Shown: piece by piece, positions 30,892 through 63,549 of the stretch
Layout: each line of letters begins with the position of its first letter
Position numbering within the stretch: the stretch's first letter is position 1
Sequence record: PX880100.1
Direction: 5' to 3' (one strand)
Length of the DNA: 64,000 nucleotides
Source: a phage
The notes under the pieces: generated by a model
What the model was told of the DNA's origin: nothing
Databases searched by the model: none
Seen by the model: only the letters and a program-made list of their open reading frames with translations
Made by a program: the position numbers and the translations under genes

Positions 30892-30998
30892 TCTTTTGAA
30901 TAGCTTAATAATTAGGTCGGAATTTCCTCTAGCTAGTAAGTATAGCTTTTCATAATCGAAGAATTTAATTTTTGTTTTCTCCTCGAATTTATGTATAT

Positions 30999-31028
30999 AT
31001 TATACTAGATTTCGAGAGAATTTAGCAA
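30999..31028 (-). promoter_or_regulatory. sigma70-type promoter (copy 2 of a tandem pair)
   Basis: Minus strand: TTGCTA, 18-bp spacer, TATAAT, then leader ATATACATAAATTCGAGGAG. Confidence 0.55.
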
Positions 31029-31099
31029 CTAAAATTTTTATTTTTCTGCTTCGGACTTTCTTATCAATCCGAAACTTTCTCTCTCAAATTTATGTATAT

Positions 31100-31128
31100 A
31101 TTATACATCATTTATGAGCTGTTGCCAA
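31100..31128 (-). promoter_or_regulatory. sigma70-type promoter (copy 1 of a tandem pair)
   Basis: Minus strand: TTGGCA, 17-bp spacer, TATAAT, then leader ATATACATAAATTTGAGAGAG; the -35 lies in the last codons of the helicase gene. Confidence 0.5.
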
Positions 31129-43229: not shown

Positions 43230-43496
43230 TTACGATTCCTTGAGTAAAGAAGCAAGTTCAGCATAGACTTTATCTAACTCAAAGCCGATGCGAAGAGACA
43301 CGTTTGTTTTCCGTTGTTTAAGTAACCACTCGGATATGTTAGGGATGCCAGCTAATCTATGCGGTACCACCCTACATAGCTTTTCCGAAGTGTCGTAAAC
43401 AGGAACTTTACGTTCCTTTACTGGGAACTTCCTTGTTTCCCATTTTTTATTCTTCACTGTCATTTCTAGCACCCAGCTCTGCCATTGCTTCATCAT
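43230..43496 (-). CDS. hypothetical protein (88 aa)
   Basis: Start moved to ATG 43496 (MMKQWQ...) with GGAGA upstream; overlaps the 3' end of the large helicase gene. Confidence 0.3.
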   Translation of the reverse strand: MMKQWQSWVLEMTVKNKKWETRKFPVKERKVPVYDTSEKLCRVVPHRLAGIPNISEWLLKQRKTNVSLRIGFELDKVYAELASLLKES

Positions 43497-46236
43497 GCAT
43501 ATGTTTCTCCTCATCAGTCATAAACTTATACGGGATTGGCATACACTCGATTTTACAATAGGTTCTGTACCAGTCTACAATATTCTCCGTGTTCATATCC
43601 TTACCAATACCCATCATACCAAGATACATTCTTGCATATTTTGGGTTAGCACTCTGACCTGTTTTAAGGAAGAAATCTTTCTTCTTACCTTTCAGAGCTT
43701 CTATGAATGGTTTGATAGTGACATTTGAACACTTCTTAATATCTTCCCAGAACATCTCGTGCATCTTATGGAAGAATGCAGCTCGATCATTCGGTTTATC
43801 CTTGATATATTGTTCAACATGCTCAACTGTTACATCTTTAATAGACTCAAGATGATAGTAGCGAACAAGAAGTAGTTTAGCTTCATACGCATCTGCATGG
43901 CGTGGAGCACAATAATCAGGAGTTGAATACAAAATAGCTTTGATTCGCTCTTCCGTATATTCCTTCCCAGCACCTTCGATAGTTCCCCAGCTTTCACTGA
44001 AAATATCAATAGTTGCACCCTGATCAAGCAAGTAATAACGTAAAGTACTAGTATAATTCCTAGACTCCAGCTCCCTGCGACGTGCGTATAATTGCTGTGC
44101 TAACTCCAGCCAACCTTCATCAATGTTATATTGCTCAGAACCTGCGGAGAATCCACTCGTAGATTTATCAATAAAATAATAAATGTTCTGAGCGCCACGG
44201 TCGCGCCTGATTGCTTGGAAACGCATGTTTGGCGCTTGGTTGCTGGTTCTAGTAATAACGAATACGTTATCAAAATAGTTGAAATCAACACCACTAGTTA
44301 CGGATGGGCTACATAATAAGCAATCAATTTGTTGGTCAATTAGCTCATTAGTTGTGTAATCCAGAATACGTCGAATATCCACATCAGATGTGGAGTTTGA
44401 GTGGATTTCCTTAACTAACGCACCCGTATTACGACGCAGCGCCATGCCCTTCTCATTCAGTTCATCAGGACCACAATCAGATACCAGAATAGATTTCTCA
44501 CCCATTTCTAGAGAAGTCTGAAGTGCAACCCAAATACTGGATTCATCCGGGAACTCATAAGCATGAGCTTTTGACAGCATCTTACGGTGATGATTATAAA
44601 ATGCTACTGGTTTATCAAACTCAATCAAAGAGCCATATGCTTCAATTGTTTCTGCACTAATATCCCCATCAGATAATATAATAATTTTTGCAGTTGCAAG
44701 AATGTCCCGAAGAACCTGAATACATTCACGACGTTGTTTAACAACCGGGGCGAATAATAGGTCATTCATTACAGCATCACATTCATCGATAAAGATTGCA
44801 TCAATTTGACCAATAAAACTCTTGAACTTATGCAAAGAGTGAATAGTTGTGGACATACGGTCAATAGCACCACGCTTAAAATTAAGCATATCTACAGACT
44901 TATCATATTGTCCTGCACTGAATTTCTTAGCATTTGAAGACACCAGCGCTCTAGTATTGGTAATTGCTAAGAAATTACCTTTAATAACTCCCGAATCTAA
45001 CCAACGCACAACCGCCGTAGTTTTACCTGTACCTAGACTTGCTTTTACAAAAGTCATATAACCTTCTGGTGGCACAGTATTTAATTTCAAGAAGTTATCA
45101 GTTTCTAGAGAATTAGTTTCTAGCTTTTTAAGTGGAATACCTTTTAAAACATCTGGTATATCACGTTTAGAATTATTAACAAATGCTTTCAGAGCCTGTT
45201 TACGACCATTATTAAAGTAATCTTGAATATTGCGACTATTATCTTTAGTTGCAATATATTCTGATAAGGCTGGACGAATTTCTTTTTCTAGCCATGCAAA
45301 ATCAACACCATCCTCCAAAGCTCTATGATAGAGTTTAGGGATAATACGTAGATACACCCCATCCTCAGCTTCTTCTAGTTCGCTGATAGTTTCCTCTACT
45401 TTATCAGAGGCAGCTTTTTTACCTTTAATTTGATCGAGTAAAGAGTAAAACTCCTCCTTAAACTCACCTCTAGTTGTTTCATAGTCAACCAGATTATTGG
45501 GTAAATTTACTTTAGAACCCTTAACAAATACCAGACGTGAAGCACCCTCCGCTTTAAACGGATCTACTATACCATCAATAAATAACGGATCTGCAAAATA
45601 ATGGAGCTGTACGGAAGAGTAATAAGCTAAGTCGGCAATATCAAAGCCATACTTTTGTCTACTACTTTCGTTGATAGATGTAAATAAGAATTTGATTTGA
45701 CCCTGAGTTACTTTAACATTAGATTCTAGTATTAAGTGCATTCGGATACCTGGTTTTAGCCCAGCCGAAGACGATGCATGAGCAATAAACCCTGCATCAA
45801 GAGGAAACATATCCTCACTAATACTATTTAACATTCTAATAATATGTCGAGCCATGCCAACAAGATCAAACTTGTTACAACCACCTGTATCTACAATACC
45901 ATCCACGTCCATTGCAATTATATGACTTGGGTTAGATACATTAAAGTTGCCCTTCTTACGTCGCACATTATTTTTAGGTGCAAGACATCGACCTCGTACC
46001 GCAACGATATGAGGGTCAGACGTTAAACGTCTCATAAGAGGAAGCATTTCTACTAGGGTTTGAGGATCAACTTCATCAATTACATCAAACTTGAAGGGCA
46101 TTGAAGCTGGTTTACCTTCAGGATGCTTTGAGGAAAATCTTTTAGCAAAAAGATAGTCTTCTGCTTTAACTTCTCGCCAATTGCCTGTGGCTAAATCGCG
46201 ATGAAATCCTGCATGACCTTGTAGGATTGAGAACAC
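43447..46236 (-). CDS. large P-loop NTPase / putative replication-initiation helicase (929 aa from GTG 46236; track ORF 955 aa from TTG 46314)
   Basis: Walker A FVKASLGTGKTT and Walker B/DExx AIFIDECD in the middle of the protein; N-terminal ~400 aa carries acidic clusters (IIAMDVDGIVDTGG) that could be a primase-polymerase-type domain. GTG 46236 is preceded by AGGAG at a 7-nt spacing. Confidence 0.55.
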   Translation of the reverse strand: MFSILQGHAGFHRDLATGNWREVKAEDYLFAKRFSSKHPEGKPASMPFKFDVIDEVDPQTLVEMLPLMRRLTSDPHIVAVRGRCLAPKNNVRRKKGNFNVSNPSHIIAMDVDGIVDTGGCNKFDLVGMARHIIRMLNSISEDMFPLDAGFIAHASSSAGLKPGIRMHLILESNVKVTQGQIKFLFTSINESSRQKYGFDIADLAYYSSVQLHYFADPLFIDGIVDPFKAEGASRLVFVKGSKVNLPNNLVDYETTRGEFKEEFYSLLDQIKGKKAASDKVEETISELEEAEDGVYLRIIPKLYHRALEDGVDFAWLEKEIRPALSEYIATKDNSRNIQDYFNNGRKQALKAFVNNSKRDIPDVLKGIPLKKLETNSLETDNFLKLNTVPPEGYMTFVKASLGTGKTTAVVRWLDSGVIKGNFLAITNTRALVSSNAKKFSAGQYDKSVDMLNFKRGAIDRMSTTIHSLHKFKSFIGQIDAIFIDECDAVMNDLLFAPVVKQRRECIQVLRDILATAKIIILSDGDISAETIEAYGSLIEFDKPVAFYNHHRKMLSKAHAYEFPDESSIWVALQTSLEMGEKSILVSDCGPDELNEKGMALRRNTGALVKEIHSNSTSDVDIRRILDYTTNELIDQQIDCLLCSPSVTSGVDFNYFDNVFVITRTSNQAPNMRFQAIRRDRGAQNIYYFIDKSTSGFSAGSEQYNIDEGWLELAQQLYARRRELESRNYTSTLRYYLLDQGATIDIFSESWGTIEGAGKEYTEERIKAILYSTPDYCAPRHADAYEAKLLLVRYYHLESIKDVTVEHVEQYIKDKPNDRAAFFHKMHEMFWEDIKKCSNVTIKPFIEALKGKKKDFFLKTGQSANPKYARMYLGMMGIGKDMNTENIVDWYRTYCKIECMPIPYKFMTDEEKHMHDEAMAELGARNDSEE

Positions 46237-46735
46237 AACAATACTCCTGTGTTGGAAATGAAATAAGTTTTCTTTAGGACTATTCAGAAAGAATAGAACA
46301 ACTGTTACTGTCAATTTCTCAACAAATTAATTGCAAATACTGAAGTGGGGTGGCAACTTCCACTTTCACGCTACACTGCCGCTTCACTATACCGCACAAA
46401 TCCTTGAGGATGGCCGCTAAGCCAGATTTGCTCACCTAATGCTTCATGTACTAGCTCATACTAGATGTAGTATACCTTACGTCATCACTTCTCAGAGTTT
46501 TTCACTCTTCCCGTCTCACTTCACAACCACCTCACACTAGGTTGCTTCGAGGCCTTACCAGGGTTCCTACGGGATGTAGATCGCTAAGTATTCTATTAAT
46601 TATTTGTTTAAAAACCAACACGTAACAGTTAAAACAACCCTTAATGGGGCAGCCTAACTGTTCCGTATCGCGGATTGTAAACAAGAAAAATTAGCAAAAT
46701 CAATTTTTACTAATGTCTCTCGATTCAATATAAAT
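46237..46735 (-). other. long ORF-free 5' leader / intergenic region upstream of the large helicase gene
   Basis: About 500 nt between the promoter at 46736-46764 and the helicase start contain only 2-3 codon ORFs and are GC-richer than flanking DNA, with purine-rich GTGA/AGTGA repeats on the transcribed strand. Confidence 0.5.
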
Positions 46736-46764
46736 ATTATATCAAGATTTTGGGCATCCTGCAA
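46736..46764 (-). promoter_or_regulatory. sigma70-type promoter
   Basis: Minus strand: TTGCAG, 17-bp spacer, TATAAT, with AAAATTTT upstream. Confidence 0.5.
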
Positions 46765-46803: not shown

Positions 46804-46831
46804 CGAGTAAAACCGAGCCAAAATGACTCGG
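46804..46831 (-). terminator. terminator-like hairpin after the Sir2/HAD operon
   Basis: Minus strand: stem CCGAG/CTCGG with 9-nt loop followed by TTTTACTCG; short stem, weak. Confidence 0.35.
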
Positions 46832-46840
46832 TTATGTAGA

Positions 46841-47038
46841 TTAGACACTTAAAATACTTCTAATCTCTTCTATATACTTATCTACTTTTTTAGCATCTAC
46901 TTTACTTAGTTTTCCTATGTCAAAATCAGGATCAGTAAACATTCTAGCTATCTCTATCTCTAGAGACTTACTAATTTTCCCTGTAGTATTCCACTTAGAA
47001 ATCTTACCTTTTATCTTCCAAAATTCCTTATTCATCAT
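46841..47038 (-). CDS. hypothetical protein (65 aa)
   Basis: Last ORF of the operon; Lys-rich; ATGATG start at 47038 overlaps the end of the frameshifted paralogue. Confidence 0.35.
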   Translation of the reverse strand: MMNKEFWKIKGKISKWNTTGKISKSLEIEIARMFTDPDFDIGKLSKVDAKKVDKYIEEIRSILSV

Positions 47039-63107: not shown

Positions 63108-63490
63108 TAATTTAAAAGCTAGTAAATCGGTAGACGAAAGCCCAAGCATCTTACCTCGCAGCAGCGGTTGAAATACGAGGTTAAATAAGACCGCTGACCA
63201 TACTATAAAGTATAATCTATTGGAGATTATGTTTATTACACCAGCCTTTTAAGCTGACACGTAAGAACAAAGCGTCGTTGATATTACCGACACAACTTCA
63301 AAGATCAACATTTAAGTATGAAAGCTGAAAAGTTTAAAGAACTCAAACTTCTAAACTTCTAAAGCTAAAAGATGCAAAGTATTCGTTGATGATTCAAACC
63401 CTAGATCAAAGGTACATGGCTCATAAGATATGGCCTGTGGCGCCTCTAGGCTGTTTATCGGTTTACTAGTTTCACAATTTAAAAATGTAT

Positions 63491-63519
63491 TTGCTAATTT
63501 ATTAAGTTATCTGTATAAT
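63491..63519 (+). promoter_or_regulatory. sigma70-type promoter
   Basis: TTGCTA, 17-bp spacer, extended -10 TGTATAAT; RBS-like GAGG before ATG 63550. Confidence 0.6.
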
Positions 63520-63549
63520 ATATTTTTAAATTGATGAAACGAGGCTATT

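Follow-up and report, generated by a model that had tools for sequence, protein, structure and literature searches.

The 64,000-nucleotide (nt) stretch of DNA analysed here (the window; sequence record PX880100.1) comes from a T5-like phage of the genus Tequintavirus, to which E. coli phage KS_S14 is 99% identical over the stretch at these coordinates. We report that a segment of its minus strand at 46237-46735, immediately upstream of the gene for the large helicase D2, represents a previously uncatalogued structured-RNA family in a classical model phage. The element is, with high probability, a functional structured RNA. Our best explanation overall, which we hold with slightly more confidence than doubt, is a family-wide structured RNA in the leader of the D2 early transcript, most likely a processed leader. 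As read from the sequences, the element acts as RNA on the sense strand and not as double-stranded DNA. A sequence-only reading of the window had singled out the segment as a candidate regulatory or non-coding RNA or, alternatively, a replication origin. The first proposal is now strongly supported, by a promoter of the element's own and by a fold kept through compensatory changes in eight diverged leader types. What stands of the second is that the element adjoins a gene for an initiator-like helicase; at the level of the DNA it gained no support, as neither iterons nor DnaA boxes nor conserved repeated words were found.

The D2 leader and its sequence types

The genes around 46237-46735 lie on the minus strand, and the segment is predicted to be the 5' leader of the D2 transcript because it is bounded by a promoter and by the GTG start of D2. 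The position directly 5' of a large helicase gene, already pointed out in the sequence-only reading, was correct: the gene is D2, with its GTG at 46236. The features that frame the leader are the following.

46736-46764, minus strand: predicted strong early sigma-70 promoter, with -35 TTGCAG (46764-46759), a 17-nt spacer and -10 TATAAT (46741-46736)
46234-46248, minus strand: Shine-Dalgarno AGGAG (46248-46244) and GTG start of D2 (46236-46234), from the sequence, with the same layout in T5
43447-46236, minus strand: D2 helicase gene, 929 amino acids (aa), 'replication origin binding protein', homologue of T5.108 (Pfam, PHROG and PDB profiles)

An A/T-rich tract lies upstream of the promoter and ATTTATATTG follows directly after TATAAT. 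The motif ATATT is a typical feature of T5 early promoters (PMC7472727), and with its sigma-70 hexamers, 17-nt spacing and ATATT past the -10 the predicted promoter falls into the T5 early class. A promoter is annotated at the homologous place in the T5, HASG4 and S114 records, and the T5 reference record carries no annotation between this promoter and T5.108. We infer a transcript start near 46729 from the sequence, and the predicted leader runs for ~494 nt on the minus strand up to the GTG start of D2. Terminator prediction found no terminator-like site between the core of the element and D2 in this phage.

Leaders upstream of D2 homologues were gathered from IMG/VR, metagenomes and GenBank phages, and fall into at least eight sequence types across the Demerecviridae, which we have named A through H. 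Type A is that of this phage, and type B that of T5 and the Epseptimavirus phages; both are found inside the genus Tequintavirus. Type C belongs to a lineage with a D2 73% identical, the level seen in Klebsiella phages, type D to the Providencia phage PSTCR5 lineage, and type E to the IMG/VR viral genomes L034 and L035, with 63-64% identity in D2. Type F comes from a metagenome contig, type G from Pectobacterium phage DU_PP_V and type H from Pectobacterium phage My1. In all lineages examined the element stands directly upstream of the D2/UL9-like gene.

Comparison of the leader of this phage with that of T5 gave 82-100% identity over the first ~100 nt and the last ~60 nt, and ~32-38% over the central ~300 nt, with the exception of one 50-nt block (62%) which holds a conserved motif. 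Promoter and start codon are 521-529 nt apart in types A and B, variants bearing a ~97-nt insertion excepted, and an inner core bounded by the helix P3 (see below) measures 216-224 nt in six types.

Comparative evidence for a conserved fold

One architecture, composed of HP1, CS1, P1, P2, P3, P4 and P6-P11, recurs across the leader types, with types D and E matched at the P8 module alone. In this phage its parts are as follows.

46683-46721, minus strand: HP1, a long 5'-terminal hairpin of the predicted transcript (RNAalifold on seven types: 18 pairs, 11 of them compensatory)
46644-46669, minus strand: CS1, a conserved 26-nt segment GAUACGGAACAGUUAGGCUGCCCCAU with a small hairpin CAG/CUG (CGG/CCG in type F), from cross-type comparison
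46595-46631, minus strand: 5' arm of P1, the long-range closing stem of 32 pairs, kept as a stem with a different sequence in every type
46299-46331, minus strand: 3' arm of P1, on the same basis (inverted repeats I3, I7 and I8)
46368-46584, minus strand: P3-enclosed core of 217 nt, with P3, P4, P6, P7, P10, P11, P8 and P8a (covariance model R1)
46523-46545, minus strand: P6 hairpin; its loop UAG...UGAGG complements the bulge of P8 (candidate pseudoknot or kissing loop)
46486-46508, minus strand: P7 hairpin, followed by the conserved GAGAAGUG; AGAGU/ACUCU changes to GGAGU/ACUCC within type A
46396-46431, minus strand: P8 module, a covarying stem (8 of 8 P8 pairs compensatory) with an invariant hairpin GGCU[UAGC]GGCC (46412-46423) and a 3' bulge of 7-10 nt
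46343-46365, minus strand: P9 hairpin with conserved loop GUUGCCA(CC); AAGUGG/CCACUU changes to AAGGGG/CCCCUU within type A; equivalents in types C, F, G and H
46280-46296, minus strand: small hairpin just 3' of P1, invariant in type A, with analogues in types C, F and G by eye

The sequence-only reading had named covariation against T5-like relatives as a check on a structured RNA, and compensatory changes were indeed found both within type A and across types. The type A set comprises 16 distinct sequences, and their alignment is unambiguous because they are 97% identical. The type A structure has 130 pairs with 99.2% of the cells paired, and seven of the pairs (33 cells) are compensatory, as compared to 0-1 pairs when the partners are slid by 1-3 columns. 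Examples are the change of CUACA/UGUAG to CUGCG/CGCAG in P3 and that of CCCGU/ACGGG to CCCAU/AUGGG in P4. All eight one-sided changes in type A P1 leave the bases still paired through G.U.

Across types a covariance model was chosen because alignment with MAFFT misplaces type B, and type F by one base. This model, R1, covers a 219-nt core with 43 pairs in eight comparatively supported helices, and was seeded with type A only. It recovers type F with 126 bits, G with 85, H with 36 and C with 24-26, as well as all type B leaders, including that of T5, at full length with 21-27 bits (E ~1e-5 to 1e-3). All matches in types F, G, H, B and C lie on the sense strand and at the expected position, and R1 did not pick up whole elements in types D and E or in the Vibrio and Aeromonas phages. 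In the cross-type alignment, itself a fit to the model, pairing holds in 94.6% of cells versus 36-45% in slid controls, compensatory changes occur at 34 of the 43 pairs, and covariation scores 0.50 versus 0.06-0.11 for slid partners; none of 500 shuffles reached any of the observed measures. HP1 was folded independently of this model, from seven types. The local hairpins which the sequence-only reading had remarked upon are thus real and conserved by covariation.

G.U pairs tie the fold to the transcribed strand, since each of them would turn into an A.C mismatch in the complementary strand or in a DNA cruciform. Such pairs make up 26 of the 163 pairs in the fold of this phage, 7 of the 34 pairs of P1 in T5 and 11 of the 36 in type F, and the U.G pair that closes the UAGC loop is kept without exception (21 of 21 sequences). 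Minimum free energy (z = -2.8 versus shuffles) and the energy gap between sense and antisense strands were also considered as evidence and were rejected, since 20 coding windows of the same phage fall in the same range. The evidence for structure, drawn from sequence comparison, is comparative and not thermodynamic.

Architecture of the RNA

The stem P1 closes a multi-helix core of ~260 nt (P2 to P11). It has 32 pairs here, 34 in T5 and 36 in type F, with a range of 25-36 base pairs (bp) across types. Upstream of it, CS1 hardly differs among types A, B, G and H and can still be made out in C, F and E, following the pattern (G)AUACRGAACRGU..GGCYG... Within the core, P3 consists of GCG-AU-CUACAU paired with GUGUAG-CGU, and P4 encloses the hairpin P6, the loop of which starts with UAG. 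The segment GAGAAGUG after P7 is common to types A, F, G and H, while type C has AAGAAGUG instead. The P8 module is present in eight types, its hairpin being generalised as NNCU[UAGC]GGNN, and in types A and B the motif GGCTTAGCGGCC keeps a constant distance of 186-189 nt to the start codon. Support is weak for the helices P5 and P11 and for the inner hairpins between P10 and P8. The small hairpin at 46280-46296 has no U tract after it, and no terminator was called there.

The loop of P6 and the bulge of P8 are complementary in each of six types, with different sequences: UGAGG/CCUCA in type A, UAGAG/CUCUA in F, CAUGU/ACAUG in C, UUAAGG/CCUUAA in G, UUAAGG/CCUUAG in H and just UAGG/CCUA in B. 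Complementarity extends over 4-6 nt in cognate combinations and over 2-5 nt (mostly 2-4) in non-cognate ones when the near-identical types G and H are left out. The individual P values are 0.03-0.2, and a Fisher combination of five independent values gives P ~0.006. Taken together, the sequences lend moderate support to a pseudoknot or kissing contact between the P6 loop and the P8 bulge, which could be intra- or intermolecular.

Some further observations concern the 5' part of the leader. The CS1 segment ACGGAACAGUUA (46655-46666) can pair with UAACUGUUACGU of the P1 5' arm (46620-46631) over 12 nt at 92% (inverted repeat I5). This pairing is an alternative to P1 in types A and B and could be a folding switch; types C, F, G and H lack it. 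Some 60 nt downstream of the main promoter, at 46703-46674 on the minus strand, there is a further promoter-like site, TTGATT-18-TACAAT. If active it would yield transcripts without HP1 which begin just ahead of CS1. Three leaders (L013, L033 and L026) carry a ~97-nt insertion right after HP1, at the position homologous to ~46683; GenBank records with two-piece matches also fit such an insertion, and a duplicated TTTTTCTT at its flanks resembles a target-site duplication.

In type E (L034 and L035, 700-1500) the leader is 764 nt, with ~225 nt extra past P1, a second consensus promoter (TTGACA-type, at -66) directly before D2 and a second GCCUUAGCCG at -86. Distant Demerecviridae have ORF-free stretches (lacking open reading frames, ORFs) of 1.1-1.3 kb behind strong promoters upstream of the helicase gene, as in Aeromonas phage TS3 (L043, 165-1530) and Vibrio phage JSF10 (L040, 437-1528). 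The 1.3-kb stretch of TS3 contains two CUUAGCGG hairpins and a CS1-like ACGGAAC...GUUAGGCUCC. The stretches of TS3 and JSF10 may be expanded homologues of the RNA, the homology of TS3 being tentative.

Coding potential and composition

According to the sequence-only reading the segment is free of plausible ORFs, richer in GC than its surroundings, and populated by repeated GTGA words. The absence of coding potential was confirmed: the leader has only short ORFs with GTG or TTG starts, which are not conserved in position or length among the eight leader types. No ORF of at least 20 aa is kept in frame and position, as place, length and start codon vary across all eight types. The higher GC content holds for the core (0.48-0.54 per 50-nt block) but not for the leader as a whole, which has 39% GC. 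The part matched by the covariance model has 47% GC, and three blocks of the leader are AT-rich (0.20-0.28 GC), namely those at its two ends (50 nt each) and the one at the P1 5' arm. With an AT-rich unwinding element of an origin in mind, the first 50 nt were found to have 20% GC, and the longest A/T run measures 12 nt; this stretch is the one that folds into the covarying HP1. As to the repeated words, GTGA does occur more often than expected, with eight copies versus 3.0 in dinucleotide shuffles (P ~0.001) and a density of 16 per kb in the leader versus 2.6 per kb in the window. These words are located in loops and junctions of the RNA fold.

Such features could also be taken to indicate an element of the DNA itself (an iteron origin, a cruciform or an array of protein-binding sites), or a mosaic junction or spacer filled with spurious small ORFs. 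The GTGA enrichment and the long inverted repeat speak in favour of this, as do the ORFs of 38-50 aa that some GenBank records annotate in the leader and the swapped central segment, which is typical of phage mosaicism. It is nevertheless very improbable. The compensatory changes maintain pairing of the RNA, including G.U pairs, which makes no sense for duplex DNA or a spacer, and the long inverted repeat is imperfect as DNA, with A.C mismatches on the other strand wherever the RNA has G.U. Direct-repeat arrays of the iteron kind were not found in the leader, which has no direct repeats beyond two short ones of two copies each; in T5 the GTGA words are not kept as an array, and no repeated word is conserved between leader types. 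Neither strand of the leader contains the DnaA box TTWTNCACA. The ORFs are not conserved, and a 1-nt indel of some type A variants sits inside one of them and shifts its frame. Finally, the length of the element is held within ~8 nt despite near-random sequence identity.

Searches for known RNA families

Scanned with Rfam, as suggested in the sequence-only reading, neither the window nor any of 12 related loci had a match that reached a gathering score. With E-value thresholds, Rfam 15 returned chance-level matches to small nucleolar RNAs and microRNAs and one match of 28.7 bits, for which the gathering score is 100. Among the families without a match in any leader type are GOLLD, ROOL, riboswitches, RNase P and 6S RNA. 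ARAGORN found no tRNA or transfer-messenger RNA in the window or in seven related loci. No similar DNA was present in 5,426 E. coli genomes or in the PLSDB plasmids, and in a pattern scan of IMG/VR (GATCT..AGAAGTG..CTTAGCGG) the true matches were T5-like contigs only, six other matches having failed the model. A full-text literature search found no description of the leader.

Divergence of the core and of D2

Pfam assigns Herpes_ori_bp to D2 at residues 394-533 only; the protein belongs to PHROG 3712 and matches solved UL9 chains. In T5, D2 is a bipolar superfamily 2 (SF2) helicase and a proposed replication initiation protein (PMC3632103). The N-terminal ~390 aa (45067-46236, minus strand) gave no Pfam, PDB or profile match, and a single-sequence AlphaFold model of these 390 aa had a predicted local distance difference test score of 34 and no recognisable fold. 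This N-terminal part co-diverges with the RNA core.

The following identities are relative to this phage, with those for D2 amino acids taken over the first 300 aa. Type B (T5) has 91% identity in D2 amino acids, 64% at four-fold sites and 58% in the core over the 166 of 219 positions that can be aligned; in plain alignment its identity is 32-38% over most of the core. Type F has 70% in D2, 48% at four-fold sites and 69% in the core over 216 positions, and type G has 67%, 52% and 64% (214 positions), respectively. The more distant types F and G keep the more similar core, which is therefore under purifying selection between distant lineages. The T5 allele of the core, in these comparisons, diverges no less than the synonymous sites of the adjacent gene do, and probably further. 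The block of divergence between type A and T5 consists of the core together with the first ~1.7 kb of D2, with 58-76% identity at four-fold sites versus ~80% in the last 900 nt of the gene. This pattern looks like the exchange of a cassette made of the RNA core plus the N-terminal half of D2, or diversifying selection acting on it.

The same pattern bears on a rather unlikely alternative, that the leader is an origin transcript which serves as activator or primer of T5 replication, in the manner of RNA II of ColE1 or of the T7 and T4 origins that depend on a promoter. The fold would then favour a persistent RNA-DNA hybrid or recruit D2 for loading at the site, and the core with the N-terminal half of D2 would give each lineage its replicon specificity. 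The divergent block speaks for such a role, and discordant, cassette-like evolution is a trait of plasmid incompatibility determinants. The element is also immediately upstream of the sole gene for a UL9-like, initiator-type helicase, with synteny throughout the Demerecviridae, and in T5 it lies at ~59.0-59.5 kb of 121.75 kb, near the middle of the genome. On the other hand, there is no promoter-like site on the plus strand within 46237-46735 and so no candidate for a counter-transcript, the GC skew shows no special strand asymmetry with respect to neighbouring genes, and the iterons and DnaA boxes of an origin are missing. We also know of no requirement for an elaborate conserved tertiary fold in the origin transcripts of T4 and T7. 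In a related and unlikely scenario the RNA would be a type-specific component of initiation in the T5 family, recognised by the N-terminal domain of D2 to license or prime the origin, so that the interchangeable cassettes set replicon specificity when T5-like phages co-infect; such an RNA would possibly multimerise by means of the covarying loop-bulge contact.

Proposed working of the element

We return to the explanation that we favour, a processed leader. It is favoured because P1 is a duplex of ~32 bp made from sequences ~260 nt apart, like the stems cut by RNase III. That enzyme cleaves such long duplexes in precursors of ribosomal RNA (rRNA), and the lengths of P1 in this phage, T5 and type F (32, 34 and 36 pairs) lie above the ~20 bp that we took as the minimum flanking duplex for a stem of this type. 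The combination of processing and control in cis is a more specific proposal, and one that we put forward tentatively on inference from the fold. The transcript would start at its own sigma-70 early promoter and be protected by HP1 at its 5' end. The long P1 duplex would be a substrate of the RNase III type, and its cleavage would release the core as a discrete, stable RNA of ~300 nt, leaving a D2 mRNA with a ~65-nt leader that starts near the small hairpin at 46296-46280. How much of the replication helicase is made, and when, would thereby be set by the element, and the released core may have a further role, alone, with D2 or in initiation.

Several points weigh against this explanation. The transcript start is a prediction, and the RNA's stability and its processing at P1 are likewise presumed. 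The fitting of the cross-type alignment to the model inflates its percentage of paired cells, although the margin over the controls is still large; the ~21 distinct core sequences are phylogenetically related, type C is misaligned in its 5' half on the R1 alignment, and types D and E match in the P8 module by eye and at 7-9 bits. The folding energy is not unusual for this genome. With regard to control in cis, no conserved helix that would sequester the ribosome-binding site was seen by eye in the eight types. The promoter between the element and D2 in type E fits a purely cis-regulatory role poorly, as does the terminator that seems, by eye, to precede the helicase gene in TS3.

These last two features would be expected if the core were an independent trans-acting non-coding RNA or ribonucleoprotein, a rather unlikely alternative in which the core itself is the product, be it a scaffold, a kissing multimer, a partner of D2 or a decoy for host defence, and its place in the D2 leader would be merely a means of early expression. 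In type E, D2 has a promoter of its own on the far side of the element, and the ORF-free stretch of TS3 seems to have a terminator of its own. Large multi-helix RNAs with conserved loops are usually functional products themselves, P1 is similar to excision stems, and the covarying complementarity of loop and bulge could be intermolecular, as are the loop contacts of the phi29 packaging RNA (pRNA). Divergence of the T5 allele beyond that of synonymous sites would fit an arms race. Against this stand the lack of a terminator between the element and D2 in six of the eight types, the tentative nature of the TS3 homology and the absence of a recognisable fold in the N-terminal domain of D2.

The leader could also act as a sensor, its fold binding a metabolite, D2 or another protein and thereby switching the translation of D2 or the decay of its mRNA. 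A complex fold with few invariant nucleotides (CUUAGCGG, GAGAAGUG and CS1) is in the style of ligand- or protein-binding RNAs, the position in a 5' leader is suitable, and CS1 has, in types A and B, the alternative of pairing with the 5' arm of P1. We nevertheless consider a sensor quite improbable. No expression platform is apparent, as there is no terminator and, by eye in the eight types, no conserved pairing with the Shine-Dalgarno sequence; the alternative pairing of CS1 is not shared by types C, F, G and H, Rfam gave no match, and the core is much larger than known riboswitch aptamers. The P8 bulge was separately considered as an anti-Shine-Dalgarno sequence and rejected: it is complementary to AGGAG in types A, G and H and not in C, D and E.

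Neighbouring features

The order on the minus strand is the end of a 65-aa ORF at 46841, a terminator hairpin with U run, the promoter, the leader and D2.

46805-46833, minus strand: predicted intrinsic terminator hairpin and U run which closes the upstream transcription unit (inverted repeat I11, 46811-46820 / 46824-46833)
46841-47038, minus strand: ORF of 65 aa (PHROG 29527, function unassigned), between the T5.107 homologue and the terminator

A terminator site homologous to the first of these is annotated in the T5 and HASG4 records. The ORF is also found in HASG4, and T5 is without it at that position. The promoter segment 46714-46774, taken alone, has two matches per genome in Klebsiella T5-like phages (84-94% identity), which suggests a shared early-promoter module reused at several genes. 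Other stretches of the window without an ORF of at least 40 aa on either strand are located at 63150-63525 (376 nt) and at 30892-31111 (220 nt), the latter where gene orientation flips from plus to minus.

Significance and comparison with known systems

T5 is a classical model phage, and to our knowledge neither the mechanism by which its replication starts nor the sequence of its origin has been defined; its 'origin binding protein' is so named solely by similarity to UL9 of herpesvirus. Bacteria and phages have few large multi-helix RNAs with strong covariation behind them, and these have repeatedly proved to be sophisticated in function. Even on the most ordinary interpretation there are consequences for annotation, as ~900 deposited genomes of the Demerecviridae type encode a D2 homologue and those examined have the leader either unannotated or filled with spurious small ORFs; a covariance model of the family deserves a place in Rfam. 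If the RNA were a component of initiation, it would mean an RNA-guided or RNA-scaffolded origin in a classical double-stranded DNA phage. The element lends itself to experiment, with a tractable phage, a defined promoter, clear helices and natural cassettes of types A and B.

Herpesvirus UL9 and its origins oriS and oriL are the comparison suggested by the downstream gene, which encodes a UL9-like SF2 helicase. The herpesvirus origins, however, are short palindromic DNA sites that contain UL9 boxes, and the UL9 gene does not lie beside them; D2 matches UL9 in the helicase region only, without a recognisable origin-binding domain; here the conserved feature is an RNA fold. Among plasmids, ColE1-type RNA II and other replication-control leaders share with the element a long (~500 nt), untranslated, folded RNA transcribed from a strong promoter beside replication functions, and RNA II shows the same fast divergence of sequence between related replicons with the fold kept. 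In contrast to ColE1, there is no antisense promoter of the RNA I type here, the RNA runs into the helicase ORF, and neither sequence nor model similarity was found.

The stems cleaved by RNase III in rRNA precursors, in the leader of lambda N and in T7 early mRNAs are similar in that sequences ~260-300 nt apart form a duplex of ~32 bp which encloses a compact RNA, and in that the small hairpin following P1 would head the downstream mRNA. They differ in that the enclosed RNA here is not rRNA and its cleavage is a proposal, and in that T7 has local hairpins as sites in place of a long-range stem. The element resembles GOLLD, ROOL and other large non-coding RNAs of bacteria in being a phage-borne RNA, several hundred nt long and multi-helix, with a probable pseudoknot and covariation to back it; it matches no Rfam model, differs from them in size and motifs, and is fixed in the leader of a helicase gene and not near tRNA clusters. 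The pRNA of the phi29 family is likewise phage-specific, with a strongly varied sequence, a structure that is kept and a covarying complementarity of two loops, but the core described here is two to three times larger, shows no homology to it, and lies in a block of replication genes and not beside those for packaging.

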